DNA from: an uncultured Spirochaetaceae bacterium
GTDB taxonomy: Bacteria > Spirochaetota > Spirochaetia > SZUA-6 > DRHE01
NCBI GenBank assembly: GCA_964551205.1
Contig: CAZKCQ010000001.1
Coordinates: 5,746-69,745 of the forward strand
DNA length: 64,000 bases
Reading direction: 5' to 3'
The notes below the pieces were generated by a model. That model did not search any database, had not been told where the DNA came from, and worked only from the letters and a program-made list of their open reading frames with translations. The position numbers were made by a program, and so were the translations under genes. Of the stretch, positions 44,417 through 64,000 are shown piece after piece (the stretch's first letter is position 1; every line of letters begins with the position of its first letter).

Positions 44417-44453
44417 ATCGCTGCTTATATGTTCTGTCATTGACCACGCCATT

Positions 44454-45872: not shown

Positions 45873-45907
45873 ATTTTTCCTCCGCCGTTTATTTGTATTG
45901 TTTGTCG

Positions 45908-47560: not shown

Positions 47561-47628
47561 TTCAGTATCTCCTTGGTGTTGTGCATTTTCTGTCGGGGGG
47601 CGTCCCGGCGACTACCACTTCGCGACAG

Positions 47629-48453
47629 TCAACCTTTCAGTGCGCCTTCCGTTACACCCTTGATGAAATATTTCTGGAACGAAAGAAAGAGCACGATAAT
47701 TGGCAATAGGGTCAAGGTGAAACCGGCGAGCATTAGGTTCCACCATTGCAAGTACTGGCCGGAAAGCTGGTATTGGGACAACGGAATCGTAAATCGCTTG
47801 GACGTAAGTAGAAGCGACGGCAAGAGAAAATCATTGAAGATCCACACCGTACCAAGCATGATGACCGTTGCAATGATCGGTTTGAGGAGGGGCAACACAA
47901 TGAAGATGAATATCCTGAAATTGCCTGCCCCATCAATATGCGCCGATTCTTCGAGCTCCAACGGAACTGAGCCCTTGATGAAACCGGTGAGGAGAAATAC
48001 AGGTAGAGACATTCCGAGGGCGATATAGATAATGATCAAGCCTCCCATGCTACCAATTTTTAGTACACCCACAACCTTCATGAGCGGGATCATGATAACA
48101 CTAAAGGGGATCATAAGCCCGGATATAAAGGCAATGTATATGACCTGATTAAAGACACTCTTATGACGAACTATGGCGTAGCTTGCCATTGAGGTGAAAA
48201 GTACTATACCGACCATAGAAAGAGAGACCACCAGGACACTGGTGATAAATGCGTTTACCATATGCGTGGTCTTAACGACCTGTGTGAAATTTTCGAAAGC
48301 CAGATGTCGAGGAAACGAGTAAAATGGTCTGGTCATCTCCTCCATAGACTTAAACGCGTTGATGATCGTCAAAAAAACCGGGAGAAAAAAAACCAGGGCT
48401 ATGATAATCAAGATCGGCGGAAGAACTACAGATGCAACCTTGTTACGCCTCAT
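47629..48453 (-). CDS. Carbohydrate ABC transporter permease (MalG-like)
   Basis: 'AHIDGAGNFRIFIFIVLPLLKPIIATV' EAA motif and six TM helices. Confidence 0.85.
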   Translation of the reverse strand: MRRNKVASVVLPPILIIIALVFFLPVFLTIINAFKSMEEMTRPFYSFPRHLAFENFTQVVKTTHMVNAFITSVLVVSLSMVGIVLFTSMASYAIVRHKSVFNQVIYIAFISGLMIPFSVIMIPLMKVVGVLKIGSMGGLIIIYIALGMSLPVFLLTGFIKGSVPLELEESAHIDGAGNFRIFIFIVLPLLKPIIATVIMLGTVWIFNDFLLPSLLLTSKRFTIPLSQYQLSGQYLQWWNLMLAGFTLTLLPIIVLFLSFQKYFIKGVTEGALKG

Positions 48454-49322
48454 CTCTCCACCGCCCTCTTATTCAGAGATACGATAATGACAAGCGATAC
48501 AAGCATGACGATGAAAAAAAGAACATAGGCTGCTGCGGAAGCCCGTCCAACCTGCGAATTTTTGAAGGCTACCTTGTAAATATAGATCGATAACGTTTCC
48601 GTCACGGTTCCGGGCCCACCTTTGGTCATAGAGAAGATTTGGTCGAATTGCTTGAAGGCGAACACCAGCGTATGCACAAAATTGATGATGAATGCGTGGG
48701 TAATGAGCGGAAGTTTGACCGCGACCAGTCGCCGCCAACTTCCGGCACCGTCGATCGAGGCTGCGGCCAGCAAGTTCGCATCGACACCCAGAAGTGCGGC
48801 GGAGTAGATAAGCATCGCCACACCGATGTTCATCCAACTCGTTGCGATGATTGCCGAAAACAGAGCCATCGACGGACTGAGGAATCGGATGCTCGCCAAG
48901 GAAGTCAACCCCAGTAATTTAAAGATCGCAGGAAAGCCCAGTTTGTAGATGTAGTACCATATGAATCCGATGATGATCGGTGTAAGGATCGCCGGAAGGT
49001 AGACCAGAACCCGGGTAATCCCGTTCACTAACCTGTTCGAAGAAGCATCAATACTAATAGCGATGATGAGAGCAACTGAGTTTATCAGTACTGAGGAGAT
49101 AAGCACGTAAATGACTGTTACCCGCAATGAGTTGAGGAAACGCTCTTCACCGAAGATCGTAATATAGTTCTGGAGTCCGACGAAATGAAGCTTCTCGACG
49201 AAGCTGGAGATGTCGGTAAGCGAAAGATAGAAGCCGAAGAATATCGGAAAGAGAACAAAGATCCCATAGAGGAACAATCCAGGGAACGTGAATAGAAATG
49301 ATTTTCTTGCAGAAATGAGCAT
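48450..49322 (-). CDS. Carbohydrate ABC transporter permease (MalF-like)
   Basis: Internal ATG ('MLISARKSF...') with an AAGGTG SD 5 nt upstream. I could not confirm a start codon at the ORF-track start 49382, and my coordinate reading there may be off by ±1 nt. 'AASIDGAGSWRRLVAVKLPLI' EAA motif. Confidence 0.8.
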   Translation of the reverse strand: MLISARKSFLFTFPGLFLYGIFVLFPIFFGFYLSLTDISSFVEKLHFVGLQNYITIFGEERFLNSLRVTVIYVLISSVLINSVALIIAISIDASSNRLVNGITRVLVYLPAILTPIIIGFIWYYIYKLGFPAIFKLLGLTSLASIRFLSPSMALFSAIIATSWMNIGVAMLIYSAALLGVDANLLAAASIDGAGSWRRLVAVKLPLITHAFIINFVHTLVFAFKQFDQIFSMTKGGPGTVTETLSIYIYKVAFKNSQVGRASAAAYVLFFIVMLVSLVIIVSLNKRAVER

Positions 49323-49385
49323 ATCCGCACCTTGTCGGAAGGAAGATACGCTGCACCGACGGCGATGCAGCGTACATTTCACTTT

Positions 49386-50648
49386 CTATTTACTGTACAC
49401 CTTGTACGCTTCGAGGAGATAGTTCTCCAAGGTTTGATTGGTATCATTCGCTGTGATCATTCCCGCGTTGAACTCCTGCAGTTTCGCACTCCAGTCCGAC
49501 CAAACGTTAGGCATGAACCACATGTGGTTCGGCAACGGATAGAGGGAAACTCCTGCATCTACGTACTTCTGTATGTCCTTTGCTACCGGGTCGAAGTCCG
49601 CATGGGCACCCTTCATAGCCGAGAAGATGTGGGTCACGTCTGTCCATATGTTAACTGCTTCTTCGGTTGTCAGCCATTCGACGAACTTGAGACCCATATC
49701 TTTGTCCTTGTGCTTCGCGTTGACACCGATGGTAGAATCGGCTCCGAGGATCATCACGTTTTTCTTGGCTCCATCGGGGGCCGGAGGAATGAATAAGCCG
49801 AGCTCAGCTTCGTTGTTATAGCTCAGTATCGAACTCACCGCCCAGACGCCCTGAATCACCATGGCTGCTTCGCCAATCGCGACTTTCTGGTTGCCCAATC
49901 CGTAACTCAAGTCATTGACATCCGGGTTGGCGTATTTCAGCAGCTTGGAGTACATCTCCATGGCTTTGGTCCATTCGGGGCCCGTGAAGTGCTTTTTGCC
50001 GTTGATAACGTTCATGTCGAAGTTAGGATCCGGCCCGTAGACAAACGGTGTCGCGATTGTCATCACAGCAATACCAAGTGGCCACTGATCATGACCGGTA
50101 ACCACCAGAGGGGTGACTCCCTTTGCTTTAATCTTGACACAAGCGCTGAACAGCTCGTCCCATGTTTGCGGCACCTGGACACTTGCGTCTTTAAATACCT
50201 TCTTGTTGTAGATAAAACCTTGGGCAGCTAAGTCGATCGGCAGGCTGTAGATTTTACCGTCGAGGCGTTGTCCGTCGAGAATCCCATCTTTCACACGGCT
50301 GAGGAATTTTTGATCAGTAAGATCCATCATGATTCCGGCTTTGGGAAGGATGAACCCGTAATTACCTCCTGGGATCGAGATTACCGCAGGCAAAGTTCCT
50401 GCTGCCATTCGAGCTTTGACAGCCTCATCGTAGTTACCAACACCACTGTAGACTACAGTCACATTCGGGTGCAGTACGTTGAAAGCCTTTGCCCATGCCT
50501 CATAGGTTGCTGTGGCTTCTTGTTTCCACACCAGAACCTCGAGCTCAATTTTAGCTGTTCCTTCTTGGCCGCCACTTGCAAAACCTGCAACGCCAACTGC
50601 CAGAAGGAGAATTAGAACAATTAGTGTGTTTCTACGCATGTTTTTCAT
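49386..50648 (-). CDS. Sugar ABC transporter substrate-binding protein
   Basis: Signal peptide 'MKNMRRNTLIVLILLLAVGVAGFASGG'. 420 aa SBP_bac_1-type. Confidence 0.8.
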   Translation of the reverse strand: MKNMRRNTLIVLILLLAVGVAGFASGGQEGTAKIELEVLVWKQEATATYEAWAKAFNVLHPNVTVVYSGVGNYDEAVKARMAAGTLPAVISIPGGNYGFILPKAGIMMDLTDQKFLSRVKDGILDGQRLDGKIYSLPIDLAAQGFIYNKKVFKDASVQVPQTWDELFSACVKIKAKGVTPLVVTGHDQWPLGIAVMTIATPFVYGPDPNFDMNVINGKKHFTGPEWTKAMEMYSKLLKYANPDVNDLSYGLGNQKVAIGEAAMVIQGVWAVSSILSYNNEAELGLFIPPAPDGAKKNVMILGADSTIGVNAKHKDKDMGLKFVEWLTTEEAVNIWTDVTHIFSAMKGAHADFDPVAKDIQKYVDAGVSLYPLPNHMWFMPNVWSDWSAKLQEFNAGMITANDTNQTLENYLLEAYKVYSK

Positions 50649-50735
50649 TTTCCTCCATTTTTCGGTAGATTTCCCACTTTTTTTCGACTATCTTTCTGTA
50701 AAATTCTTGTCTCTTCTTCCACCTCCTTTCATTTA

Positions 50736-51986
50736 TTAACTTCCGGAACCCTCCAGCAATCGCGGAATAGCGGATGGTTTGTGTAAGATACGCTCTACCA
50801 CGAGTGCGCTTACACCGACGAGTGCTGGATCGTTCGTTGACGAACTCAGCTCGATCTTAAGGTTGTGATACACACGGGGAAGTACATGTCTTTCAACGGT
50901 ATTACGGACCGTCTCAAGAAGTAAGTCGCCAAGTTTGGCCATTTCGTCACCAATCACAATTGTGTTGGGATTGAATGCGTTGATGACGCTCACCAAACCA
51001 AAACCGAGATACCATGCTGCCTTTTTCACCGCTTTGCGAACCAGCTCGTCTCCACCCTTTAAGGCCTCAACTATGGCCGGGAAAGATTGGTCCTTCGCAA
51101 GCATGCTCACTGGGTGATCGATAAGTCCTTCCTTCACTTCTCGTACGAGTGCGATTGAGGAACAGTAATGCTCGAGACAACCGTTGTTCCCGCATTCGCA
51201 TTTGGGCCCAGCAAAGTCAATACTCATATGCCCAATCTCTCCGGCGATCCCCAGGGTTCCCCGCAGAAGCCTGCCGTCGATTACAATTCCCGCTCCGATG
51301 CCCTGGCCAGCAGCCACGTAGATCATCGTTTCGTTTTCCATATGACGAGGGGATAGCCACCATTCGGCAAGGGCACCGGCCTTGGCATCATGCTCAAGGA
51401 ATACTGGGATAGGGAATGAAGACGATAGTTCTTTTTCGATAGAGACCATTTCCCAACCTGGGTATTCTGTCATGAGGGCAATCTTGCCTTCGGACCTTAC
51501 ATATGGACCAGGAATGGCAGCTCCAATTCCGAGAATCGTGAATTGGCGGGATGTGTCCAGCACTTGCGTGACATGGTCGATAATTTTCCGAATCACGGAA
51601 GCGGAGCCCACTGAGATGTCTATTGGCACCCGCTGGACCATGTTTTCTGCACCGAACAAATCGAACAGCCCGACAATGAAATAATTCCTGGTGAGCCGGA
51701 TACCAACTACCTTGTAGGCTTTGGTGTTGAGAGTGATGCCGATAGATCTCCGACCTTTCTGACCATTAATAATTCCTGTTTCAGTGACCAGACCCCAGCT
51801 GATGAGATCGTTGATGATATTTGTTATTGTGGCATTCTTAAGACCGGTCATCTTGGCTAGGTCGGCACGGGAACAAAGTTTCACTCTTCGAAGGAGCCTG
51901 ATTACTAAGGCTCGATTCATTTCCTGAACATCTTCAAGATTCATTCCCTGTTTCTGTCGTTTCGTCACCATTATCCATAAGTCCAA
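50736..51986 (-). CDS. ROK family transcriptional regulator (NagC/XylR-like)
   Basis: N-terminal HTH 'LCSRADLAKMTGLKNATITNIINDL'. ROK signature 'GIGAGIVIDGRLLRGTLGIAGEIGHMSIDFAGPKCECGNNGCLE' contains the Zn-binding CxCGxxGC. The start may be the internal Met at 51971 or 51944. Confidence 0.8.
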   Translation of the reverse strand: MDLWIMVTKRQKQGMNLEDVQEMNRALVIRLLRRVKLCSRADLAKMTGLKNATITNIINDLISWGLVTETGIINGQKGRRSIGITLNTKAYKVVGIRLTRNYFIVGLFDLFGAENMVQRVPIDISVGSASVIRKIIDHVTQVLDTSRQFTILGIGAAIPGPYVRSEGKIALMTEYPGWEMVSIEKELSSSFPIPVFLEHDAKAGALAEWWLSPRHMENETMIYVAAGQGIGAGIVIDGRLLRGTLGIAGEIGHMSIDFAGPKCECGNNGCLEHYCSSIALVREVKEGLIDHPVSMLAKDQSFPAIVEALKGGDELVRKAVKKAAWYLGFGLVSVINAFNPNTIVIGDEMAKLGDLLLETVRNTVERHVLPRVYHNLKIELSSSTNDPALVGVSALVVERILHKPSAIPRLLEGSGS

Positions 51987-52167: not shown

Positions 52168-52557
52168 TTGCAGCCACCGAGTCGATTAATTGAACACGCC
52201 CGGCAAGAACATGGATATGTAGGGGTGGCCTGGGTTCCAGCGGCGGGAGAAACGGTACTGGAAAGAGCGGGACCCGGTCCCCGCACCCTCTGGCCTTTGG
52301 ACATCGATCTGATCACAACCTCGGTGAGAAAAACCGGCCGGGTGGTGATCGTGGAGGAATCACCCGAACAGGGCGGACTGGGGGCGGAGATCGCTGTTCA
52401 GATCGCCGAACAGATTCCTGATTGTCTGCTCACCCCGGTAACCCAGATCGCCGCACCCAATACTCCGGCTCCGTTTTCACCGATCACGGAGAAGGCCTAT
52501 ATTCCTCAGCCTGAGCGGATCGCTGGAACAATCCAAAGACTCATCGAGGAGTATTGA
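52168..52557 (+). pseudogene. Orphan C-terminal fragment of a pyruvate/acetoin dehydrogenase E1 beta subunit (transketolase C-terminal domain)
   Basis: 'LWPLDIDLITTSVRKTGRVVIVEESPEQGGLGAEIAVQIAE' and 'APNTPAPFSPITEKAYIPQPERIAGTIQRL' match the last ~120 aa of E1-beta proteins. About 200 N-terminal residues are missing. The fragment has host-like GC. Confidence 0.55.
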
Positions 52558-53090: not shown

Positions 53091-53270
53091 AATCCCAAAT
53101 TCATTATTCACATTATATTTCAAAAACAACCAAAATCGACCATCTCGATATTGTCATGCCGAAATGGGTGAACTATGATGATGGCGGTTCTACATGGGCG
53201 TGATCCTGCGAAATGCCGAGCGCCCGACGGCACGATTGCCGCATGTCGACTCACAGAGGAGGAACTTTCT

Positions 53271-55430
53271 ATGTGGATCGAGGATACCTATCGCCGCCTG
53301 CATCTGGATTTCCACATGCCCGACTGGAGCCCGGAGATCCTGGCCGCATTCGACGCCGGGCAGATCGTCAGCAACGTGAAGAGGGCCAACGCCGATGCCC
53401 TTTACTTTTTCGCCAAGTGTCACTACGGCAACGCCTACTACAAGACCCAGGTAGGCAAACGTCATCGAAACATGAAGGACCGGGATTTCCTGGCCGAGAT
53501 GATCCTGGCCTGCCGGAAGGCCTCCCTGACCATTCCGGCCTACTTCAGCCTGGTCTGGGATGTGCATGTCTCCGTAAACCATCCCGAGTGGTGCATGCGC
53601 CATCCCGACGGGCAGGCTGTCACCAATCCCTGGCCCTATATCTGCTTCAACTCCCCCTACCGGCGGTACACCACGGAGATGCTGAAGGAGGTGGCGGCCT
53701 ACGACATCGACGGCATCCACTTCGACATGATCAACTTCAGCTTCAACGGTCTGTCCTGCTACTGCGACACCTGCCGGAAGATGTTCTTCAACCGCACGGG
53801 GCACCACATTCCCGAACAGCCCACCTGGGACGAAACCTGGAGGCAGTTCCTCCGGTTCCGCAATGAGACGATCCTCTCCTTCGTGTCGGACGTACGGGCG
53901 GCGGTTCACTCAGTCAAACCGGATCTGCCCATGGACTTCAACTATCACGGTTCACCGGGCTTCGACTGGCGGGCGGGCCAGAAACCGATCATGCACACCA
54001 CCTTCAACCCACAGGGTTCGGGGGAATCCTATCCGGCGGCTTTCGGGGTGCACTACACCAGCTTCGAAGCCCGTTTCCTAAAAGACCTGATTCCGGATCG
54101 ACCGGCCGAGATCGTCACCTCCCGTTTCAATGGACTTTGGGACTACACGGTGAAGAAGGAGGCCGGCCTCAAGTGGGAGCTCACCACGGCCCTATCCCAC
54201 GGCTGCAAGGTCATGGTTGTGGATCAGAACCTTCACGATGGGAGCGTGGATCCCCTGGTATACGACCGCCTGGCACCTGTGTACCGTGAGATCGAGGAAA
54301 AGGGAGAGCTCTGGGGCGGAACGCCGCTGAAGTTCGCCGCCCTGTACTACTCCGTTTCCAGCCGCGATTTCTACGCGCGGGGGGATCTGCCCAAGTACCT
54401 CCTTTCGGCGGGCGGCGCCTTCAGGGCGCTGGTGGAGAGCCACCTGCCCGTCAACGTTTTGCACGAGGAAAACTGTACCTTCGAAAAAATGAGGGTGTAT
54501 CCGGTGGTGGTCCTGGCCAACGTGGCGGCTATGAGCGATGCGGAAGCCGAGATGTTCCGCCGCTACGTGGCCGAGGGAGGAGTGTTGGTTTCCACTGGAG
54601 ACACGGCCCTGCACGATGAAGCCGGACGGCAGCGCCGGGAGCTGGCATTGGCCGATGTTCTTGGAGCAACCTACACGGGAAAGACCGAGACCCGCAACCA
54701 TTACCTCAGGGTGGAAGACGGGAAGGTCGGCTCCGGGCTCGAGGCGAAGGAGTACATCCTCTGCAATTTCCCGGGCAACATCGTAGAGCCGACCACGGGC
54801 AAGCCCCTCGGGAATCTGCACCTCAGCTTCCACGATCCCCTACCCCCCTATCAGACTTTCTCTCATCACCTGACCCCGCCGTGGCGGCAGGCCGGTCCCG
54901 CGGTCATTGTCAACGACTTCGGCAAGGGTCACTCCCTGTACACCCCCTCGCGGGTCTGCGCCGCTTACGCGGACCTATACACCCTGGCAGCACAGCGCAA
55001 GCTCCTGGCCAACCTGGTCACGGCCGAAGCCCCACCCCCGCTGACGGTGGATGCTCCGCTCAACGTGGAAGTGGTGGTGAACGAGCAGCGCAGGGGCATC
55101 ACCGGCAGCGACGGCGGCGATCCCGATTCCAAGACTCCCCCTGTCTCCCTGGTCACGGGCAAAACGCAACCGGAAAGCCGCCTGATCATCCACCTGATCG
55201 GCTACAACCCCCTCAAGGAGATCTTCACCCGCGGGTCGCAGATGGACGACCGGCCGGTACGCCCCGGCCCAACCATGGAGGAAGCGCTGCTGTATCGGGC
55301 CCGGATCGAGCTGCCGGCGGCCCCGAAATCCGTCAAAGCCTGGAGCCCCTCCACCGAGCTGAAGGTGGAAGGAAGGCAGGTGGATATTATGGTTTCAGAG
55401 ATCCACGAAGCCCTGATCGTCGAGATGTGA
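53271..55430 (+). CDS. Putative glycoside hydrolase, GH42-like / GHL6-like TIM-barrel protein
   Basis: ATG at 53271 with a GAGGAGG RBS. 'YICFNSPYRRYTTEMLKEVAAYDIDGIHFD' resembles the GH42 'YCPSSPxYRE' block. The 'LSCYCDTCR' Cys cluster resembles the GH42 Zn-binding CxC..C. The start could instead be 53175. Confidence 0.45.
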   Translation: MWIEDTYRRLHLDFHMPDWSPEILAAFDAGQIVSNVKRANADALYFFAKCHYGNAYYKTQVGKRHRNMKDRDFLAEMILACRKASLTIPAYFSLVWDVHVSVNHPEWCMRHPDGQAVTNPWPYICFNSPYRRYTTEMLKEVAAYDIDGIHFDMINFSFNGLSCYCDTCRKMFFNRTGHHIPEQPTWDETWRQFLRFRNETILSFVSDVRAAVHSVKPDLPMDFNYHGSPGFDWRAGQKPIMHTTFNPQGSGESYPAAFGVHYTSFEARFLKDLIPDRPAEIVTSRFNGLWDYTVKKEAGLKWELTTALSHGCKVMVVDQNLHDGSVDPLVYDRLAPVYREIEEKGELWGGTPLKFAALYYSVSSRDFYARGDLPKYLLSAGGAFRALVESHLPVNVLHEENCTFEKMRVYPVVVLANVAAMSDAEAEMFRRYVAEGGVLVSTGDTALHDEAGRQRRELALADVLGATYTGKTETRNHYLRVEDGKVGSGLEAKEYILCNFPGNIVEPTTGKPLGNLHLSFHDPLPPYQTFSHHLTPPWRQAGPAVIVNDFGKGHSLYTPSRVCAAYADLYTLAAQRKLLANLVTAEAPPPLTVDAPLNVEVVVNEQRRGITGSDGGDPDSKTPPVSLVTGKTQPESRLIIHLIGYNPLKEIFTRGSQMDDRPVRPGPTMEEALLYRARIELPAAPKSVKAWSPSTELKVEGRQVDIMVSEIHEALIVEM

Positions 55431-55437
55431 GCAGGAA

Positions 55438-56538
55438 ATGACCAACCGGGAGCGCTTCCGGGCCGCCCTGGCCTTCGAGCCTATGGACAGGCTCTGCCAC
55501 GTGGAGTGGGGATTCTGGGAGGAGACCTACACTCGCTGGCAGGGGGAGGGGCTTCCCGGGCGGGTCGTCTATCCGGCCTTCGACAACCTGAGCGACGGAG
55601 AGGATCTGTTCGAGCATCTCGGGGTGATCCGCTTCGGCTACCTGTTGCCCAACCAGTACTTCCTTCCCCAATTCACCTGCAAGGTGCTCGAAGAGGACGA
55701 GCACTTTCGCCTGGAACGGAATGAGAGGGGAGTGCTGGTGCGGATCAACAAGGAGAATCGTACAATTCCTCAGTTTCTGGACTATCCCGTCAAAAAACGA
55801 GAAGACTACGAAAAGCTGCGGGAGCGTTTGGCGGCCAAGACCCAAAAACGCTATCCCGGCGATTGGCCCGAGCTGGCCCGCGCAATGAGGGAGCAGGAAC
55901 ATACGGTGGTATGCACCCACATGGACGGCTTTTTCGCCTACCCCCGGGAGCTGATGGGTCTGGAGACCTTTCTCTACACCCTGTACGACGACCCGCAGCT
56001 GATCCGGAGGATGGTCCTGGAGCGGGTGAATTTCTATATCGAGGTCTACGAACGGGCGATAAAGGAAACCGCCCCCGATTTCGCCTTCCTCTGGGAGGAC
56101 ATGTGCTACCGCAATGGCCCCCTGCTTTCACCGCAGATGTTCCGGGAGTTCCTGCTCCCCGCCTATCAGAAGCTCACTTCTTTTCTACGCGGCTTGGGGA
56201 TACAGAACATCATCGTAGACAGCGACGGGGACGTGACCGCCCTCTTACCGCTCTGGCTGGAGGCGGGGGTCACGGGGATTCTGCCCTTCGAGGTTCGCGC
56301 CGGCATGAACGTGGTGCGGATCGGCGAAGATTTTCCCGGCCTGCAGATCCTTGGAGGCATCGACAAGACCGAAATCGCCAAAGGCAGGCAGGCGATCGAC
56401 GCCGAGCTGGAGCGCGTGCTGCCGCTCATGGCCAGGAGGGGAGGCTATTGCGCCGCCCTGGACCACTGGGTGCCGCCGCAGATCGGCCTGGAGGATTACC
56501 GCTATTTCGTGGAAAAGGTGCGCCGCTTCAGGGGATAG
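55438..56538 (+). CDS. URO-D/MtaA-like family protein (paralogue 7)
   Basis: 'RTIPQFLDYPVKKRED', 'LWEDMCYRNGPLLSPQMFREFLLP' and 'NIIVDSDGDVTALLPLWLEAGVTGILPFEV'. Closest paralogue to the 6801 gene. Confidence 0.8.
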   Translation: MTNRERFRAALAFEPMDRLCHVEWGFWEETYTRWQGEGLPGRVVYPAFDNLSDGEDLFEHLGVIRFGYLLPNQYFLPQFTCKVLEEDEHFRLERNERGVLVRINKENRTIPQFLDYPVKKREDYEKLRERLAAKTQKRYPGDWPELARAMREQEHTVVCTHMDGFFAYPRELMGLETFLYTLYDDPQLIRRMVLERVNFYIEVYERAIKETAPDFAFLWEDMCYRNGPLLSPQMFREFLLPAYQKLTSFLRGLGIQNIIVDSDGDVTALLPLWLEAGVTGILPFEVRAGMNVVRIGEDFPGLQILGGIDKTEIAKGRQAIDAELERVLPLMARRGGYCAALDHWVPPQIGLEDYRYFVEKVRRFRG

Positions 56539-56562: not shown

Positions 56563-58086
56563 TCAGGATCCCTGGAATTCACTCGCCGCGCTGTTGAGAT
56601 CCCGTAGTGCAGGATACAGGCGCTTGTAGATCTCCCGCTTGCGGGCGTAATGTTCAGCCTGTTGCGGCCGGGGTATCACGGGCTCCCCTGTTTTTACCCA
56701 ACAGCGGACCAGCTCCTGGACGCTGCGGGACGGATCCAGAGCACCGAGTGCCAGCATGCCGCAGGCCAGGCAGCCGGCCTCTTCCACATCCAGGGGAGTT
56801 ACCGGCAGGTTGAAGACATCGGCCCTCATCTGCACCAGTTCGGGGCTGCGGGCCCCGCCGCTGCCGACGTGGATCACCCGCAGGGGGATTCCGGCCCGCT
56901 TTAGGGCCTCGAGGTTGAGGGCCATCTCCAGGGCGATCCCCTCCAAAATGCCCAGGGCGATATCCCTCTTTTCGGTAGCCAGTGACAGGCCGAGCAGCGC
57001 ACCCCGGGACTCCGGGTCCATAGAGGGCGTACCGCTGCCGGTGAAGTGGGCCAGAACCAGGGCGGGATTTCGACTCTCCAGGGCTTCTGCAACCATTTGC
57101 GGAAAGTAGCCGCCCCCTTCCGCCGCCAGGCTCTCAGCCCGCTCGCGGTCCAGATGATCCCGAAACCATGCCATCAGGTTCCCCCCGCTCAGGGAGAAAG
57201 CGTTGGTACAGTACAGGCCGGGTACGGCGGCGGGGGTACAGGTGAAGTGGCACTCCAGCATCGCTTCGGAGGTATTTGTAGCGCCGTAGGAGGCATTGAG
57301 GCTGTCGGTGCTGCCCATGGAGTTCACGACGATCCCCTCAGCTACCGCCCCTGACCCCAATGCGGCACAGACCTGATCCCAACCCCCGGATACATAGACA
57401 CAGTCCCCGGCCAACCCCAGATCTTCCGCCGGAATCCTGGCCACGGTGTCAACTACCTCCCCGGGAGCCACGATTCGGGCCAGCTGATCTTCCCGCAGCC
57501 GCGCGATCTCCAGCAGGCGCCTGGACCAGCCGCCCTGCTGGAGATCGTACAGACCGGTCCTGGCCGCCAGAGATGCGGAGATCGCGGGCTCTATCCCCAG
57601 GGTCAAGGCCAGCATGTCGTTCCAACAGAGAAATTTACTTGCCTGTTCGAAAACCCGGGGTTCCCGATCCCGCCACCAGAGGATCTTGAAGATCGAGGCG
57701 ATTGGATGGAGGCTCTGTCCGGTAAGCCTGAAAAACTCCGCCGGATCGATCGATTCGGCCAGAGTCTGTGCCTGCTCCACAGCCCTGTGGTCCAGAGCCA
57801 CTATGGTGTTGGACAGCGGGTTGCCCTTCCGATCCACCGGCAACACCGCCTCCCCCAGGGCGGAAGAGGCAATCCCGCCTATCCTGCCCTTTCCCACCTG
57901 TCCGGCAACATCCCGGATCACCTCGCGAATCGATCCGAGCATCCGGCGGGAGTCGAGCTCGTAGTAGCCCGGTTTGGGGCGAAGCAGGTCATATTCCCGC
58001 TGGGCGGCAGCCAGAGCCTCACCCTGCTCGTTGAAAGCGATTCCCTTTGTCGAGGTGGTTCCTATATCCAGACCCAATACAACCAT
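56563..58086 (-). CDS. FGGY family carbohydrate kinase
   Basis: 'MVVLGLDIGTTSTKGIAF' N-terminal motif. 507 aa. Immediately downstream of the glycyl-radical enzyme on the same strand. Confidence 0.8.
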   Translation of the reverse strand: MVVLGLDIGTTSTKGIAFNEQGEALAAAQREYDLLRPKPGYYELDSRRMLGSIREVIRDVAGQVGKGRIGGIASSALGEAVLPVDRKGNPLSNTIVALDHRAVEQAQTLAESIDPAEFFRLTGQSLHPIASIFKILWWRDREPRVFEQASKFLCWNDMLALTLGIEPAISASLAARTGLYDLQQGGWSRRLLEIARLREDQLARIVAPGEVVDTVARIPAEDLGLAGDCVYVSGGWDQVCAALGSGAVAEGIVVNSMGSTDSLNASYGATNTSEAMLECHFTCTPAAVPGLYCTNAFSLSGGNLMAWFRDHLDRERAESLAAEGGGYFPQMVAEALESRNPALVLAHFTGSGTPSMDPESRGALLGLSLATEKRDIALGILEGIALEMALNLEALKRAGIPLRVIHVGSGGARSPELVQMRADVFNLPVTPLDVEEAGCLACGMLALGALDPSRSVQELVRCWVKTGEPVIPRPQQAEHYARKREIYKRLYPALRDLNSAASEFQGS

Positions 58087-58119
58087 GTTTCAGGAGAGTA
58101 TCAGAGATAACGGGATCGA

Positions 58120-60354
58120 TCAGCTGCTGACGATGCGTCGCACCACTACCTCGCGCATCTCCGGGGAGAGGCTGGCAAAGTAGGCGCTGAAACCGGTCAC
58201 CCGTACCACCAGATCGGGATACTTCGACGGGTCCTTGTGGGCTTCCAACACCTTCTGTTTGTCCAGGATGTTGATGTTGATCTCCGTGCCCCCCAACTCG
58301 AAGTGGGTCTCCAGGAGAGTGCACATCTTCTCCACCCCGCCCTCCTCTTTGGAGAAGCCGGGATCCACCTCGATTTGAAGCGGGGCTGGATTTCCCCAAC
58401 CCGGTTGGACCGCGGCCACCGCCTCGGCTAAGGCAGTCAGTGCACCATCCTTGCGGAAGCCCGGATCCGGATTCGATCCGAAGGAGATAGGCTCTCCCGC
58501 TCTGCGTCCGTTGGGTGTGGCGCCCAGGTGCTTGCCCATGGAAATGGTGCTGGCCCAGGAAAACAGTCCCGGGATCATCTTGTGGCCCTTGGGGGTCGGT
58601 TTCTCCGACACGATGCCGGCGAAGCTCCGGACGATCCGTAGGGCGTATTCATCCCCTTTGGAGCCGCCGTATCCGTAGTGGGGAACGTTCTTCATCATGG
58701 CCCTTACCTTCGCCCCATCAGCAGCCGACCAGTTGCTGTCCAGGTGTTGAAGGAGCTCCTGCCAGGACAGCCGCCTCTCCTCCTCTATACGCTGCTCCAG
58801 CGCGGCGAAGGAGTCCGCCGTGGTAGCCAGGGCTGTGCCGTCTATGCAGAGGTTCACATATTCGAGCGCCCCGGGTTGGGAGACGTCCATGCCCTTCTCC
58901 ATCGTCCCGTAGCACAGCAGGTCAAGGACCAGCTCGGGGAACACCCTGTGCATGTGCTCCAGGTGAAAGTCCAGACCTTCGGCCAACACCTCCACGGCCC
59001 GCCTCAGGTGCTTCTCGAAACGATCCCACAACTCTTCCACGCCGGGCTGAATCGTGGAATCGGCCAGCATCTCCCGCAGGGCCACGTCGAAAACCCTGGC
59101 GAAGTTCAGCTTGATCAGATCGTTCATGCCGTATTCCCGGCCGGGAACAGCGAACCAGTGACAGCCGTTGTAGATCCGCTTTCTCGCCTCCTGGAGGGAA
59201 TAACCGTTCTTGGTATAGTCCCGATACAGGGAATCCAGCCCCAGGAATTTGGGAATACCGAGCTTGTCCTCGAACAGGATCTCCACACCGCGCTTCAGCA
59301 GCCCCCGATCGATGCCCTTGCCCACGGCCACGGCCACATTGGCGGGGATCTTCAGCTGGTGCACCGCTTCCAACACGAGATAGGAAACGGGGTTGCTGTT
59401 GTCCCTGCCCTGCTCGTCATAACCACCCAGCTGGATGTAGTCGCTGACCCGCAGCAGGTTCTGGGCGATGAGGAAGACCGCCTCATCCTCCGTGAGCCGG
59501 CCTTCCTCCACATCCTTCTTGTAATAGGGATAGAGGTACAGATCCAGGCGGCCCAGGGAACCGCTGTTGTCGTACATCCGGGCCGCCATCTGGTACCAGA
59601 GGATCCACTGGCAAGCCTCCCGGAAGGTTCGGGGCGGACTGTCGATCAGCCACTCGTTGATCTGTGCCATCTCGAGCATATTCCGCTTCAGCTGCTCGCT
59701 TCCCTGTACCTCGACCAGGCGTCGGGCTTCTTCGACATGCCGGCCGATCAGATTCTGCATCCCCAGAACCACGTCTTCCAGCCCGTCGTAGAATCCCTTC
59801 TTGTCCGAACCGTTGATCGTTCTGTATCGTCCGATCTTCTCCAGCAGTCCCCTCCAGCCCAGATCCAGACCGATGGAAAGATCCTGGGCCAGGTGCTGAA
59901 CCCCGCCGATCCCGGTCACCAGGCCGTACTTCTCCTGCTCCGGCACCAGGTGATCGTAGCGCAGCTCGGGATTCCAATGGGGCTGGCGGGTGGAGAAGAA
60001 GTTCATCATGTACCCGCCGGCCAGGGATCCGTAAGGATCGATGTACACCGGATGAGACTCGAGCAGACGACGGTAGTTGCGTCCCACGATGGCCGGCCCG
60101 AAGTAGCCGCCGCTCTCATGATTCGACTCCAGCTCCAGCCCCTTGATCAGGATATCAGTGATCGGTTCACCGGAAGGACCGATCAGGGAGACAACATCCC
60201 TCAACTCCTCGGGGGGAGGGATCACCGCCCAGTCATCATAGTCCATGGCACCGATGATCTGCTGCTTGGTCCGAGTGTGAGCAAGCTTGGCTTCTCTGAG
60301 ATGCTCAAGCCGCTTTTGATAGCTTAGAGTTTTTTCTTTCAGCTGCGTTGTCAT
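58120..60354 (-). CDS. Glycyl radical enzyme (PFL2/glycerol-dehydratase-like family), substrate unknown
   Basis: ATG at 60354 with a GGAGA RBS; the upstream TTG at 60369 is less likely. C-terminal glycyl-radical motif '...LVVRVTGFSAYFASL'. A conserved Cys-loop candidate is 'NGCHWFAVPG'. About 745 aa. Confidence 0.8.
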   Translation of the reverse strand: MTTQLKEKTLSYQKRLEHLREAKLAHTRTKQQIIGAMDYDDWAVIPPPEELRDVVSLIGPSGEPITDILIKGLELESNHESGGYFGPAIVGRNYRRLLESHPVYIDPYGSLAGGYMMNFFSTRQPHWNPELRYDHLVPEQEKYGLVTGIGGVQHLAQDLSIGLDLGWRGLLEKIGRYRTINGSDKKGFYDGLEDVVLGMQNLIGRHVEEARRLVEVQGSEQLKRNMLEMAQINEWLIDSPPRTFREACQWILWYQMAARMYDNSGSLGRLDLYLYPYYKKDVEEGRLTEDEAVFLIAQNLLRVSDYIQLGGYDEQGRDNSNPVSYLVLEAVHQLKIPANVAVAVGKGIDRGLLKRGVEILFEDKLGIPKFLGLDSLYRDYTKNGYSLQEARKRIYNGCHWFAVPGREYGMNDLIKLNFARVFDVALREMLADSTIQPGVEELWDRFEKHLRRAVEVLAEGLDFHLEHMHRVFPELVLDLLCYGTMEKGMDVSQPGALEYVNLCIDGTALATTADSFAALEQRIEEERRLSWQELLQHLDSNWSAADGAKVRAMMKNVPHYGYGGSKGDEYALRIVRSFAGIVSEKPTPKGHKMIPGLFSWASTISMGKHLGATPNGRRAGEPISFGSNPDPGFRKDGALTALAEAVAAVQPGWGNPAPLQIEVDPGFSKEEGGVEKMCTLLETHFELGGTEININILDKQKVLEAHKDPSKYPDLVVRVTGFSAYFASLSPEMREVVVRRIVSS

Positions 60355-60395
60355 TGCTTTTCTCCGCAAATATATAGCCCAATCACTGTAATATA

Positions 60396-61352
60396 CTATA
60401 TTCGTCGGGATTTTAAGAATATGGAATCTACTATATTTCGAAATCTTTCAATTTGCCCCCGCGGCAGCGGCTCCAGATCCGCCGCCGGGTTGTCCATCCC
60501 CAAACTCCTGTACTTATCTCCTGCCAGAGGATGGAAGGCCAGGAGCTCCAGGGCGATCTCGGCCGAATCCCGGGAGTTGCCCCGTCCCGGTTTGACCGCT
60601 TGTTTCCCCCATCTCAGCTCCTTCAACTCCCGAACGAAACGGGCAATCGCCTCCACCTCCTCCGGAGTGTCGTTGACCGTGGGGATGACCGGGAGGCGGA
60701 AGATGATCGGCGTGTCCGTTTCCGCCAGGCGGCGGGCGTTGGCCAGGATCAGCTTGTTGTTCACTCCGGTGGTTTGCCGATGCTTCTGGCCGTCCAGGTG
60801 CTTCAAATCCATCATTACCAGGTCCAGAAGCGGGAGGAGGGAGGCGAAGTCGTCCCAGGATGCATGGCCGGAGGTTTCTATGGCGGTGTGTATTCCCGCC
60901 TGCCGGCAGGCTTCCAGGATCGCTCTGCTGAATTCCAGCTGCATCAGAGGCTCGCCCCCGGAGAGAGTCACCCCGCCGCCGGAGTTCCTGTAGAAGGCAG
61001 AATCTCGAAGGATCTCCTCCATGACCTGCTCCACCGTCATCTGCTCCCCCACCATCACAAGGGCATTGGTGAAGCAGTTCTCGACACAGGCACCATGGAT
61101 TGTGCAGAGGCTGCGCTCGAAGCGCTTCTGCCCGTCAACGATGGAATGGGCGTGAACCGGACAGATCTCCACGCAGGCCCCGCAGCGAATGCAGAGCTCG
61201 GGATACACCTGCAGCTCCCGCTGCCGCCCGATTCCCTCGGGATTGTGGCACCAGAAACAGCGCAATGAGCATCCTTTGAGGAACACGGTCGTTCTAATGC
61301 CGGGTCCGTCGTGAATCGAGAAACGCTGGATGTTGAAGATCGTACCGGTCAT
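60396..61352 (-). CDS. Glycyl-radical enzyme activating protein (radical SAM, with ferredoxin-like insert)
   Basis: 'FSIHDGPGIRTTVFLKGCSLRCFWCHNPE' is the CxxxCxxC radical-SAM cluster motif. 'CIRCGACVEICP' gives the extra 4Fe-4S ferredoxin motifs typical of GRE-AEs of the PFL2 branch. Sits directly upstream of the GRE. Confidence 0.85.
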   Translation of the reverse strand: MTGTIFNIQRFSIHDGPGIRTTVFLKGCSLRCFWCHNPEGIGRQRELQVYPELCIRCGACVEICPVHAHSIVDGQKRFERSLCTIHGACVENCFTNALVMVGEQMTVEQVMEEILRDSAFYRNSGGGVTLSGGEPLMQLEFSRAILEACRQAGIHTAIETSGHASWDDFASLLPLLDLVMMDLKHLDGQKHRQTTGVNNKLILANARRLAETDTPIIFRLPVIPTVNDTPEEVEAIARFVRELKELRWGKQAVKPGRGNSRDSAEIALELLAFHPLAGDKYRSLGMDNPAADLEPLPRGQIERFRNIVDSIFLKSRRI

Positions 61353-61530
61353 AGGCGACGAATCCAAACTACTCACTTTATAGCTAAAATTCAATTGGGG
61401 TATCCAAGAGGATCACGGATTCCAAATCCGAGTCAAGCACAAATTAACAAAATCATACAATTTCCAACAAATATATGGTTGACTTTTTGCCTATTATGAG
61501 ACAAAAATTTCCGGGAGCCGGTGATTGTCT

Positions 61531-62322
61531 ATGTACGAAACGAGAAAACGCGTCATTTTTGATCTCCTCGGGCAAAGAGGAACCGTTTCGATCGCTGAAT
61601 TGAAATCCACCCTCGGCGTCAGCGACATGACCGTGCGCAGGGACATCAAAATGATGGCCGAAGAAGGCCTCCTCAGACGAGTGCACGGCGGCGCTGTAGC
61701 AATCGAGGAGCAATACGAGGATACGTCTTTTCTCTCCCGGCAGGTGGAGGAGCTGGAACGGAAACAGGCCATCGCCAGCCGTGCCATGGAGTTCCTGAGT
61801 GGGGGAGAATCCATCTATATTGATGGAAGCACCACCTGCGGGGAGTTGGCCAAACTGCTCGCAGCCACCGACAAGAGTTTTCTCGTGGTAACGGACAGCC
61901 TGTACGTGCTTCTGGAACTGAACAAGAAAAGGAACATCGAGCTCCTCGTGCTCGGTGGTGTTTTGGACAAGGACGGGAACACCTTCGACGGCATCCTCAG
62001 CGTTGACAACGCCCGCAAGGTTATGGTGGATTGCTGTTTCTTCTCGGCAAAAGGATTCTCTACAGACTACATCAGCAATGCAGTCATGACCGGCAGCCAG
62101 GTAAAGCAGTTGATGATCCGCCAGGCCCACAAATGCTTCCTTCTGGCCGATTCCACCAAGTTCGGCAAACGTGGGGTGATCAAGCTCTGCGATTGGGAGG
62201 ATGTCGATGTTCTGGTCTCCGACGACTCACTCGACCGACTGGAGCTAGAACCAGTCGCACAACAAAAAACGATAATCCATCTGGTTCACATCCCGCTCAT
62301 ATCAGCCAAGGGTGTTTCTTGA
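61531..62322 (+). CDS. DeoR/GlpR family transcriptional regulator
   Basis: 'RKRVIFDLLGQRGTVSIAELKSTLGVSDMTVRRDI' HTH followed by a DeoR C-terminal domain. Divergent from the GRE-AE/GRE/kinase operon. Confidence 0.85.
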   Translation: MYETRKRVIFDLLGQRGTVSIAELKSTLGVSDMTVRRDIKMMAEEGLLRRVHGGAVAIEEQYEDTSFLSRQVEELERKQAIASRAMEFLSGGESIYIDGSTTCGELAKLLAATDKSFLVVTDSLYVLLELNKKRNIELLVLGGVLDKDGNTFDGILSVDNARKVMVDCCFFSAKGFSTDYISNAVMTGSQVKQLMIRQAHKCFLLADSTKFGKRGVIKLCDWEDVDVLVSDDSLDRLELEPVAQQKTIIHLVHIPLISAKGVS

Positions 62323-63359
62323 AGGCTCTGGTCCTCTACGGTCCCGGCGACTACCGGGTGGAGGACGATTGGCCGGATCCCCAGGTTCAAGCGGGGTGGG
62401 CACGGATCAGAGTTCACTACGCCGGCATCTGCGGATCCGACCTGCCCCGCTTCGCCGTCACCGGATCGTATCATCACCCCATGATTCTTGGCCACGAGTT
62501 TTCCGGGGTGGTCGATACGCCGGCGCCGGGCTCGACAAGGTTTGAAGCGGGACAAGCGGTAGCGGTTCTGCCGATCATCCCCTGCGGCAGCTGTGCAGGC
62601 TGCGCAACCGGCCAGCCGTTTCACTGCAGCAGCTATCAGTTCCTCGGTTCCCGCAACGATGGGGGTTTTGCCGAGTACTGCCTGGTACCGGAGAACAATC
62701 TTTTCCCCCTGCCGGAAAAGCTGGACCTGCGCATCGGCGCCTTTATCGAACCCATCGCCGTGGCCCTGCACGTGCTGCGCCGCTCCGCCTTCCGGCCGGG
62801 GCAGGATGCAATCGTGTACGGGGCCGGTACGATCGGTATCCTCATTGCGCTCTGGCTCGGAGTGTTCGGGGCCAAACGCGTCGCGATTGCCGATATACGG
62901 CCGCAGAGCCTGGAAACCGCGCGCTCGGTCGGGCTCGAGGAAGCAATCGATGCCCGGGGACTCGGAGTCACGACAAAGTCGGATGGCGGCGCGGCCTCAG
63001 CGACAGAGAGCGGCTTCGATGCCGCTTTCGAAGCGGCGGGTTCTTCGGCGGCCCTGCTCTCAGCCATAGAGATTGTCAGAAGCTCGGGCCGGATCACAGT
63101 GGTCGGCAGAGACACCAAAGACACGGTGATACCCCTGTCCAGCTTCGAGCGATTGATGCGCAAGGAGATCGCCCTTCAGGGCTGCTGGGGATATAACCTC
63201 AACGGTGAAGAGGACTTTGTGCGGGATCGGCTGCGCCGCGGCAGCTTTCCGGCCGCAAAACTGATCAGTCGCGAGATCGGTCTGGAGGACGCGCCGGAGA
63301 CGATCCGGCACATGATCGCCGGAGACATGTACTTCAGCAAAGTAATGGTGAGAATATGA
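62319..63359 (+). CDS. Zn-dependent alcohol/polyol dehydrogenase (MDR family)
   Basis: A TTG start overlaps the DeoR stop, giving 'MKALVLYGPGDYRVEDDWP...'. 'GICGSDLPRF...PMILGHEFSGVV', 'CGSCAGCATGQPFHC' and 'YGAGTIG' motifs. 346 aa, whereas the ORF-track start at 62031 would give 442 aa. Confidence 0.75.
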   Translation: MKALVLYGPGDYRVEDDWPDPQVQAGWARIRVHYAGICGSDLPRFAVTGSYHHPMILGHEFSGVVDTPAPGSTRFEAGQAVAVLPIIPCGSCAGCATGQPFHCSSYQFLGSRNDGGFAEYCLVPENNLFPLPEKLDLRIGAFIEPIAVALHVLRRSAFRPGQDAIVYGAGTIGILIALWLGVFGAKRVAIADIRPQSLETARSVGLEEAIDARGLGVTTKSDGGAASATESGFDAAFEAAGSSAALLSAIEIVRSSGRITVVGRDTKDTVIPLSSFERLMRKEIALQGCWGYNLNGEEDFVRDRLRRGSFPAAKLISREIGLEDAPETIRHMIAGDMYFSKVMVRI

Positions 63360-64000
63360 AAGCAGCCATGATTCACGCCAAGGGCGACCTGAGACTGGAA
63401 GACATATCGATTCCGGAGGTGCCCGCCGGTTCGATCCGGGTCAAGGTGCAGGCCTGTGCCATCTGCGGGACGGACCTACGCATCTACCGCAAGGGAGATC
63501 ACCGCGCGGAGTACCCGGTGGTGGTCGGACATGAGATCGCCGGTATTGTGGAGGCCGTGGCCTCAGGCATAAAAGGTGTCCGGGAGGGGGATCGGGTCTG
63601 TGTAGCCCCCGGGCACGGCTGCGGTGAATGCCGCATGTGCCGGTCAGGACAACCCAATGTCTGCCTCAACCCCTTCCCCTCCCTCGGCTACAAGGTCAAC
63701 GGAGGTTTCGAGGAGTACTTCGCCGTTCCGGAGAATATCTTCCGCCTTGGCTTCGTTAATCCGATTCCCCAAAGCTTGAGCTTCCGCCAGGCCTCGATGT
63801 CGGAGATCATCGCCTGCTGCCTCAATGGACAGCGAAACAGCCCGGTGCGGGAGGGGGACGTGGTCCTGATCATCGGGGCCGGACCCGCCGGGATCATCCA
63901 CTCTCAGCTGGCCCGCATGCGGGGCGCCGGCAAGGTGATCCTGACCCAGCGCAGCCGACCCCGCCTGGAGCTGGCGGCGGAGCGTTTTGCCATCGACCGG
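63356..64000 (+). CDS. Zn-dependent alcohol dehydrogenase (MDR family), 3'-truncated by the window end
   Basis: ATG at 63356 overlaps the previous stop in an ATGA arrangement. 'MKAAMIHAKGDLRLEDI...CAICGTDLRIYRKG...VVGHEIAGIV...CGECRMCRSGQPNVC...IGAGPAGI'. Confidence 0.8.
   Translation, partial: MKAAMIHAKGDLRLEDISIPEVPAGSIRVKVQACAICGTDLRIYRKGDHRAEYPVVVGHEIAGIVEAVASGIKGVREGDRVCVAPGHGCGECRMCRSGQPNVCLNPFPSLGYKVNGGFEEYFAVPENIFRLGFVNPIPQSLSFRQASMSEIIACCLNGQRNSPVREGDVVLIIGAGPAGIIHSQLARMRGAGKVILTQRSRPRLELAAERFAIDR

Follow-up and report, generated by a model that had tools for sequence, protein, structure and literature searches.

A glycyl-radical enzyme of a distinct, sugar-associated clade carried as an inserted cassette in a polyol-type locus of an uncultured Spirochaetaceae bacterium

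What does a glycyl-radical enzyme (GRE) do in an operon with a sugar kinase, and how much does the kinase tell us about its substrate? The question is raised by a locus at the end of a stretch of 64,000 nucleotides (the window) from an uncultured Spirochaetaceae bacterium (assembly GCA_964551205.1, contig CAZKCQ010000001.1, positions 5,746 to 69,745), in which genes for a GRE and its activase precede an FGGY carbohydrate kinase gene and face a divergent DeoR-family regulator. Our analysis places the GRE, by its sequence, in a large clade that is apart from every characterised GRE clade, and shows that the activase and GRE genes were inserted between the kinase and its native regulatory region. 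The reading we favour, to which we give a probability of roughly one half, is that a relocatable GRE cassette typical of sugar loci was recently placed under the control of a polyol regulon, and that a sugar or polyol is probably what it acts on, by radical C-O chemistry.

The three genes of interest follow one another on the minus strand. The activase, a GRE-activating radical SAM enzyme, is encoded at 60396-61394 (332 aa from a TTG codon; gene callers prefer the ATG at 61352, giving 318 aa), the GRE at 58120-60369 (749 aa from a TTG, or 744 aa from the ATG at 60354 chosen by gene callers) and the FGGY kinase, third in the transcription unit, at 56563-58086 (507 aa, with FGGY_N and FGGY_C domains). 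Activase and GRE are 26 bp apart, GRE and kinase 33 bp, and a consensus scan found no terminator-like site on the minus strand between the three genes. Upstream of the activase lies a divergent promoter/operator region of 130 bp (61395-61524; AT-rich, 38% GC), from the other side of which the DeoR-family regulator is read on the plus strand (61525-62322, 265 aa, HTH_DeoR and DeoRC domains). This region carries inverted blocks, AAAGTCAA...TTGACT, plus TGTTG repeats, which are kept in the FGGY-DeoR intergenic region of relatives; a consensus scan of it gave a single sigma-70-like site, on the plus strand at 61479-61508. Because the gaps are short and free of internal terminator-like sites, and because the DeoR-side region is conserved, activase, GRE and kinase are very probably co-transcribed from this promoter/operator region, in agreement with what had been proposed from the letters of the DNA. 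The same cassette/kinase arrangement was present on contigs of three sequencing runs (Logan SRR8557363, SRR8556609 and SRR8557365); the first of these (L089) is an identical metagenome contig that extends beyond the end of the window. The open reading frame (ORF) map, together with searches for domains, recovered all the genes named in the original prediction, each in the place given for it or adjoining it; the range it quoted, 56563-62322, holds the kinase, GRE, activase and DeoR genes, while the two MDR dehydrogenase genes fall just outside.

To which family does the GRE belong? Pfam recognised both the PFL-like domain (PF02901, 298 bits) and the glycyl-radical domain (PF01228, 55 bits), and the activase exceeded the TIGR02494 cut-off comfortably (349 vs. 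174 bits), with Radical_SAM and Fer4 domains, a CX3CX2C motif (CSLRCFWC, at 61245-61271) and ferredoxin-like Cys motifs after it. The GRE itself stayed below the cut-offs of the named NCBIfam models: 290 vs. 678 bits for TIGR01774 (PFL2/glycerol dehydratase), 237 vs. 1109 for PflD (NF007437), 209 vs. 1100 for HypD and 178 vs. 1050 for CutC. Its original description as a member of the PFL2/glycerol-dehydratase family thus holds loosely at best. A single-sequence search of the PDB scored all solved GREs between 78 and 204 bits, with E. coli PflD (8yjo, 204 bits) at the top and 140-191 bits for the remaining eliminases, the isomerases and an unassigned archaeal GRE. With a family profile (alignment A1), the best scores were those of PflD (274 bits), HpsG (250), CutC (249) and glycerol dehydratase (GD; 239). 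Sequence identity is 27% to E. coli PflD and 25% to YbiW. The fold of an AlphaFold2 (AF2) model, whose mean pLDDT is 75, is that of a GRE: it matches all PFL-like GREs at a probability of 1.0 and with TM values of 0.60-0.66.

The family defined by the window GRE is large and coherent. A protein database yielded 1632 clusters at E<=1e-20, the best 120 of which are 58-98% identical to the window GRE and 737-798 aa long, mostly about 740. Scores within the family exceed 1000 bits at about 60% identity, a level that holds across phyla. A scan of one genome per species gave 575 confirmed loci; in the best 80 of these, the GRE is 56-63% identical to that of the window and the hosts are mostly Anaerolineae and other Chloroflexota, together with Ignavibacteriota, Bacteroidota, KSB1, Armatimonadota, Acidobacteriota, Planctomycetota and Bathyarchaeia. 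Where homologues bear a database name at all, it is either 'formate acetyltransferase' or 'pyruvate-formate lyase'. No characterised GRE of this type turned up in our literature searches, in the accessible text of a 2026 GRE review (PMC13450708) or in the PDB search. A GRE with its activase is a kind of system already known; what is new is the clade and its Cys-loop motif.

The active-site fingerprint brings out the difference. We compared the family with PflD, HpsG, CutC and GD in HMMER alignments, using GD numbering as printed in the alignment and counting conservation over 116 distinct family sequences. The family Cys loop, N-G-C-H-W-F-A-V-P-G-R-E-Y, aligns opposite G-C-V-E. In the window GRE it comprises G402-C403-H404-W405 (59155-59166, minus strand, codons translating to GCHW), in which C403, the catalytic Cys, aligns with Cys431 of PflD, Cys433 of GD and Cys462 of HpsG; the loops facing it read GCVE in PflD and GD and GCTE in HpsG. 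The glycine loop R723-V-T-G726-F727, site of the glycyl radical, is encoded at 58189-58203 on the minus strand (translated RVTGF) and is found in 112/116 sequences. Five of the seven GD active-site positions that we followed are kept: His164 (H159 in the window, 116/116), Ser282 (S269, 107/116), Tyr339 (Y311, 115/116), Cys433 (C403, 116/116) and Asp447 (D417, 115/116). The other two are replaced almost without exception, GD Glu435 by Trp (W405, 115/116) and GD Tyr640 by Phe (F603, 115/116), and the sole departure from W405 comes from a different GRE paralogue with a GCVE loop. H404 is present in 108 of the 116 sequences. The residue ahead of C403 is Gly in every one of them, so that the two-Cys loop of PFL and TdcE is absent.

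The window GRE thus lacks the CXE motif of the GRE 1,2-eliminases and isomerases, a group comprising GD, PD, HypD, CutC, IslA/IseG, HpsG, HpfG, HplG, YbiW and PflD. According to the accessible text of the GRE review (PMC13450708), all C-O, C-N and C-S eliminases and three isomerases keep CXE, whose Glu hydrogen-bonds to or deprotonates a substrate hydroxyl (the C2-OH in YbiW and PflD), with His164 as the acid in GD, and PFL and TdcE carry a CC pair on the Cys loop. The same text describes no class with Trp at the position of the CXE Glu, points out that whole clades are still unassigned, and gives roles in GD for His164, Cys433 and Glu435 only. As judged from the alignments, the family would have kept a GD-like polar pocket and the acid and dispensed with the canonical base. 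Without this glutamate as base, the enzyme may follow a chemistry unlike that of any known eliminase or isomerase, and the 'radical dehydratase' of the original prediction becomes uncertain for the same reason. Its broader proposal of a candidate new GRE specificity was borne out: the fingerprint check and the scores below all named cut-offs fit no characterised clade, the clade is uncharacterised and its Cys-loop motif is distinct.

Differences are also seen within the family. Six sequences, all metagenomic and 72-84% identical, make up the subclade of the window GRE and show fixed differences from the other 107, among them F160L, beside H159, and H630F; residue 630 is H, Q or F according to subclade. 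This suggests that the window subclade is a specificity variant. Paired GRE paralogues occur within 10 kb of each other in L004/L005 (816-3062 and 10001-12229) and in L032, L039 and L068, some metagenome-assembled genomes have GRE copies on separate contigs, and L068 has a GCHW-type GRE alongside a canonical GCVE-type GRE. Such paired and multiple paralogues, and the GCHW and GCVE types found together in L068, suggest that the clade has diversified in specificity.

How did the GRE come to lie beside the kinase? Four related loci, reached through orthologues of the kinase (62-70% identical) and of a neighbouring URO-D-like gene (81%), provide the answer. In L155 and L156, SIS, AP_endonuc_2, two MDR and DeoR genes are divergent from the FGGY gene, with no GRE; their proteins are 59-87% identical to those of the window (DeoR, 73% in L155 and 59% in L156; the first MDR dehydrogenase, 78% in L155). 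L158 and L159 have the same divergent layout and, the cassette apart, match the synteny of the window exactly: a GHL6 glycosidase-like gene, the URO-D-like gene, FGGY on the opposite strand, DeoR, MDR, MDR, AP_endonuc_2, SIS and a gene for a 432-aa protein. In the window, the first two of these lie at 53175-55430 and 55438-56538 (both plus strand, identified by Pfam), convergent with the kinase; they belong to the conserved locus and are outside the cassette. The distance between FGGY and DeoR is about 100-130 bp in all four relatives, and in L158 and L159 it is 100 bp with nothing between. In a DNA alignment of L158 with the window (A5), homology breaks off at the start codon of the kinase (58086) and is found again from about 61398, just upstream of the activase ORF, whence it runs through the AAAGTCAA...TTGACT and TGTTG blocks into DeoR (alignments A3 and A5). 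The activase and GRE genes, together with the 33-bp spacer, were inserted as a cassette of about 3.3 kb (58087-61397, minus strand) exactly between the kinase start codon and the native 5′ regulatory region.

Several observations bear on where the cassette came from. Its GC content at third codon positions (GC3) is 0.74-0.78, like that of the host genes. On reading the junctions we saw no repeats or mobile-element genes at the cassette borders, a dedicated repeat search not having been run. Close homologues occupy quite different settings: AP_endonuc_2, activase and GRE in L086, the same order plus a divergent PfkB kinase in L092, GFO, activase, GRE, IclR and PfkB in L125, a split transketolase, RpiB, GRE and a thiamine-pyrophosphate (TPP) enzyme in L088, and CUT1 ABC genes, activase, GRE, IclR and Spermine_synth in L087. 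L159, L088 and L125 share one metagenome. L087 and L088 are moreover syntenic with another part of the window, 11-13765 (ABC permeases 81-82%, IclR 74%, TPP enzyme 73% and Spermine_synth 65% identical), which is itself without a GRE; tblastn detected no GRE remnant in the window. From these comparisons we conclude that the cassette relocated within the lineage rather than arriving by foreign transfer, and that its coupling to the kinase is not ancient. Because the insertion is recent, the juxtaposition of GRE and kinase is weak evidence as to the substrate, and the main argument of the original prediction, which had taken the coupling to kinase and dehydrogenases as a clue to the substrate, loses its footing here. 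The closest homologues of the GRE lie in other sugar loci.

The kinase, by contrast with the cassette, is the ancestral gene of the locus, and it is XylB-like, not GlpK. It scored 233 bits against XylB (TIGR01312, cut-off 380) and 139 against GlpK (TIGR01311, cut-off 590), and its PDB matches were an FGGY gluconate kinase (3gbt, 163 bits), XylB (124) and GlpK (about 100). The possibility, envisaged at the outset, that it is a glycerol kinase and the operon plain glycerol metabolism was rejected on this ground and on that of the missing Glu435 in the GRE. Across the divergent region, the DeoR gene is followed on the plus strand by two Zn-dependent MDR dehydrogenase genes. The first (62319-63359, ADH_N and ADH_zinc_N domains) is GatD-like, its best model being galactitol-1-phosphate 5-dehydrogenase (NF007642, 200 bits vs. 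a cut-off of 550). The second (63356-64000, running past the window end; 353 aa in L089) is Tdh/YdjJ/IolM-like. Beyond the window, L089 continues the DeoR operon with an AP_endonuc_2 TIM barrel matching Brucella EryC (PDB 4k3z, 132 bits), a 188-aa SIS protein that reaches the HxlB (6-phospho-3-hexuloisomerase) model only at threshold (TIGR03127, 160.3 bits vs. a cut-off of 160), and a closing 432-aa protein (L089:14438-15736) for which no Pfam, NCBIfam or PDB sequence match was found. A counterpart of the last, with 72% identity, exists in L156, and L158 and L159 have a 432-aa gene at the same position, so that the protein counts as a conserved part of the polyol module. After its FGGY kinase, L156 encodes CUT1 permeases, an ADP-PFK/GK-family kinase and a class II FBP-type aldolase. 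By analogy, the host module would resemble a pathway leading from a polyol via a polyol- or ketose-phosphate to a 3-ulose- or 2-ulose-phosphate, of the erythritol or galactitol type. A sugar-alcohol reading of the locus fits this divergent polyol-type module, but the module works without the GRE: it is complete in the four loci that have none.

If the kinase is a poor guide, what does the wider family say? We called ORFs in the best 80 of the 575 loci, searched them with profiles seeded from the window genes and from the neighbour genes of relatives, and counted neighbours within 5 kb of the GRE. An activase was present in 45/80 loci. The commonest neighbour after it was a URO-D-like TIM barrel (17/80), followed by CUT1 ABC components and GFO/IDH/MocA proteins (9/80 each) and by DHDPS-family aldolases and MR_MLE proteins (6/80 each). 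FGGY kinases were found in three loci, with weak scores and in different subfamilies, an MDR dehydrogenase in one and DeoR in none, which led us to reject FGGY, DeoR and MDR as a signature of the GRE family and overturns the predicted co-occurrence of FGGY and DeoR with it. Other neighbours at GRE loci included GH130, GH36, GH31, GH42 and GH20 proteins, sulfatases, HpcH aldolases, PF12831 FAD oxidoreductases, ROK regulators, sugar or oligopeptide-type ABC systems, PfkB, AP_endonuc_2 and transketolase. The association of the GRE family with carbohydrate genes is robust; that with FGGY and DeoR is not.

Three narrower leads from these neighbourhoods were followed. The first, that URO-D-like proteins are specific partners of the GRE, was not upheld: the window copy is also conserved in syntenic loci that have no GRE. 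Copies adjoining GREs are 20-31% identical and share no conserved Cys or His, their fold being MtaA/UROD-like with the Zn ligands absent, and the association may merely reflect the abundance of URO-D proteins in sugar loci. The second, a link to sulfonates or sulfoquinovose, was prompted by the split transketolase, RpiB and Xsc-like TPP enzyme of L088, and was rejected on the absence of the sulfonate-binding Arg. In the C-S cleaving GREs (IslA, IseG and HpsG) two Arg and one Gln hold the sulfonate; of these anchors in HpsG, Arg672 aligns with G601, a Gly in 113/116 sequences, and Arg183 and Gln187 are outside the aligned stretch. A 2026 sulfoquinovose review describes no such GRE. The third is a link to inositol or other cyclitols. 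Best matches to IolC-, IolD-, IolE/O-, IolG- and IolM-like proteins recur around the cassette in relatives and in the window, and as all these scores are far below the equivalog cut-offs the link is a lead only.

Taken with the fingerprint, this context suggests that the GRE probably carries out radical C-O chemistry on a sugar or polyol. In the mechanism we envisage, the activase would install a radical on G726, which would pass to C403 as a thiyl radical. The substrate, a sugar, cyclitol or polyol or a phosphate of one of these, would be held in the GD-like polar pocket with W405 probably stacking on it, and would lose a hydrogen to the thiyl radical at a carbon that bears a hydroxyl. The adjacent C-O bond would then be cleaved, by dehydration or by ring or ether opening, with H159 as acid, while D417 or H404 may serve as base. 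Return of the hydrogen would give a keto or deoxy-keto product, and this product, or the substrate phosphate, would feed the kinase/dehydrogenase/isomerase module.

A number of points count against this scheme. The polyol-site roles of GD Ser282, Tyr339, Asp447 and Tyr640, on which the pocket is modelled, are ones that we presume from the GD literature. A canonical 1,2-elimination is disfavoured by the lack of the Glu. The AF2 model falls below a pLDDT of 50 at the active-site loops (154-160, 402-418, 604-609, 632-643 and 718-734), and because these catalytic loops are of low confidence it serves to confirm the fold only. Since the window subclade differs from the rest beside the active site, the family-wide context may not transfer to it. 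The substrate is a candidate only, and with so recent an insertion the functional coupling to the kinase could be incidental.

A more ambitious formulation, which we put forward tentatively, is that the G-C-H-W clade, widespread in uncultured anaerobic Chloroflexota, makes up a functional class of its own, new among GREs and acting on sugars, cyclitols or polyols without a glutamate base. The F630 subclade would be a variant in specificity, carried from one sugar regulon to another as a cassette. Possible reactions would include acid-only or substrate-assisted C-O cleavage, loss of a methanol, ether or glycosidic leaving group, radical epimerisation and C-C scission.

The rival that survives best, a possible explanation that we rate at something under one chance in three, takes the incidental coupling at face value: a relocatable cassette gained a promoter in front of the kinase, and the GRE substrate has nothing to do with the FGGY/MDR pathway. 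Candidate partners would then be those genes of the window between 2.8 and 13.8 kb that encode a CUT1 ABC system, URO-D-like proteins, an IolD/ALS-like TPP enzyme, IclR and a GFO oxidoreductase. Indeed, the L087 cassette lies between orthologues of the CUT1 permeases (window 10313-12144) and of IclR (3955-4749), beside a Spermine_synth orthologue, and the L088 GRE adjoins the counterpart of the TPP enzyme at 4802-6682. The settings of L125, L086 and L092 speak the same language, as do the near absence of FGGY and DeoR around the family and the completeness of the polyol module without a GRE. However, the insertion is clean and fits operon logic, using the native 5′ region and keeping the kinase downstream with its 33-bp spacer. 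If the insertion were disruptive or neutral, one would not expect it to persist in front of a kinase that the cell needs, yet the same arrangement is present in three separate sequencing runs, and other close homologues also lie beside a sugar kinase (PfkB).

A PflD/YbiW-type isomerase is an unlikely alternative. Here the FGGY kinase would replace a phosphotransferase system (PTS) in phosphorylating an anhydro-alditol or similar cyclic ether sugar, whose ring the GRE would open by C-O cleavage to a deoxy-ketose phosphate. Sequence, profile and fold comparisons all put PflD first, the kinase is co-transcribed, and YbiW and PflD act on sugar phosphates according to the GRE review (PMC13450708). 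The low identity to both enzymes, the Trp in place of the CXE Glu, the lack of an Fsa-type aldolase in the locus and the recent date of the kinase association nevertheless speak against it.

More doubtful still is the idea that the GRE is a B12-independent dehydratase of glycerol or 1,2-propanediol that has diverged. The breakdown of sugars and glycosides commonly ends in glycerol and diols, and the five conserved GD positions (H164, S282, Y339, C433 and D447) would suit such an enzyme. Against this stand the replacements of Glu435 and Tyr640, each in 115/116 sequences, the GD profile score of 239 bits and a kinase that is not GlpK; nor did microcompartment shell proteins, or propanediol or aldehyde dehydrogenases, recur as partners in the 92 loci that were clustered or in the dozen annotated with Pfam. 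Finally, an X-succinate-synthase-like (fumarate-adding) or PFL-like enzyme, suggested by the absence of the CXE Glu from these classes as well and by the homologue name 'formate acetyltransferase', is highly improbable in view of the lowest PDB similarities of all (single-sequence/profile scores of 78/118 bits for BSS, 112/143 for MASS and 88/105 for PFL, with PFL, HPAD and BSS at about 80-90 in single-sequence searches), a PFL match confined to the C-terminal glycyl radical domain, a loop with one Cys instead of CC, no conserved small-subunit ORF among the recurrent neighbour clusters, and a carbohydrate rather than hydrocarbon context.

Some other features of the window deserve mention. It contains at least five URO-D-like TIM-barrel paralogues in 64 kb, all in sugar loci (55438-56538, 6717-7883, 8024-9085, about 30584-31462 and about 39892-40497). 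In the orthologue group of the first, E23, W27, D214, W219-E220-D221, D261-S262-D263, E285, K310 and D342-H343 are invariant, and Cys is absent, which excludes an MtaA-type Zn methyltransferase. The AF2 model (pLDDT 93.6) comes closest in fold to MtaA-like 4ay7 and to UROD (TM about 0.65). The region syntenic with L087 and L088 (11-13765) encodes a Spermine_synth-domain protein, GFO, IclR, a 626-aa IolD/ALS-like TPP enzyme, two of the URO-D-like proteins, a 341-aa protein and CUT1 ABC components. It is followed at 13943-21291 by a LacI-headed set of GFO, AP_endonuc_2, PfkB, a myo-inositol-1-phosphate-synthase-family gene (18008-19087, 303 bits vs. a cut-off of 638), GFO and SDR. The best matches of this set are Iol-like, all far below the equivalog cut-offs, and it may be a cyclitol-related pathway.

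A further sugar operon occupies 40718-51986 on the minus strand (ROK, CUT1 ABC, GH13, AraA-like isomerase, a second FGGY kinase, AP_endonuc_2 and GFO/IDH/MocA). Its GC content is much lower than that of its surroundings (GC3 about 0.52 vs. about 0.76 in neighbouring genes), and the syntenic L158 and L159 do not have it, so that it was probably acquired horizontally, as an island. Between it and the GHL6 gene, a short plus-strand ORF (52168-52557; 110 aa in L089) retains only the C-terminal part of a transketolase C domain (profile positions 43-124 of 124), as though it were what is left of a gene. Scans of the window for Rfam families and tRNAs gave no matches.

Strict anaerobes rely chiefly on GREs for difficult C-O, C-N, C-S and C-C transformations, and each newly assigned GRE clade has so far exposed a new pathway, as for hydroxyproline, choline, isethionate, DHPS and 'anhydroglycolysis'. 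With the present clade assigned, a so far unrecognised step in the anaerobic turnover of carbohydrates would probably come to light, in settings such as sediments, bioreactors and hot springs; it would also become clear whether GREs can perform C-O chemistry when the CXE base is missing. The occurrence of the same polyol locus with and without the cassette amounts to a natural experiment, with a defined regulon and a candidate set of inducers.

How does the locus compare with known systems? Among GREs, the nearest are PflD and YbiW, isomerases that cleave a C-O bond of 1,5-anhydromannitol-6-phosphate and 1,5-anhydroglucitol-6-phosphate (PDB 8yjo, 8id0 and 8id7). They share with the window enzyme the PFL-like type, one catalytic Cys, an activase of their own that carries additional Fe-S motifs, and a sugar-locus context, and they act on sugar-derived substrates. 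PflD and the window GRE have in common the His equivalent to GD His164 and an Asp 14 residues past the Cys, where YbiW has Gly. They differ in the Cys loop (GCVE or GCIE vs. GCHW), in overall sequence (25-27% identity) and in the N-terminus, which is remodelled in the window GRE, and the latter also lacks about 18 residues ahead of the Cys loop (alignment A2). The Fsa-type aldolase and PTS genes are missing from the window locus. Next come propanediol dehydratase and the B12-independent glycerol dehydratase of C. butyricum (1r8w/1r9d). The latter has the same fold, and the equivalents of its His164, Ser282, Tyr339, Cys433 and Asp447 are kept, whereas the window GRE has Trp for Glu435 and Phe for Tyr640 and no diol-pathway partner genes.

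For the host module, as distinct from the GRE, the closest analogues are the erythritol pathway of Brucella, with the FGGY kinase EryA, the TIM-barrel racemase EryC and ulose-phosphate isomerases further down, and the galactitol (GatD/GatR) type of polyol-phosphate catabolism. We know of no erythritol- or galactitol-type pathway that contains a GRE. The host module has Zn-MDR dehydrogenases where the erythritol pathway reportedly uses EryB, and all its enzymes are below the equivalog cut-offs, except for the SIS protein at the HxlB threshold. It shares with these pathways an FGGY kinase, an AP_endonuc_2 protein matching EryC, a putative isomerase of the type that converts 3-ulose- to 2-ulose-phosphate, a GatD-like MDR dehydrogenase and a DeoR-type regulator.

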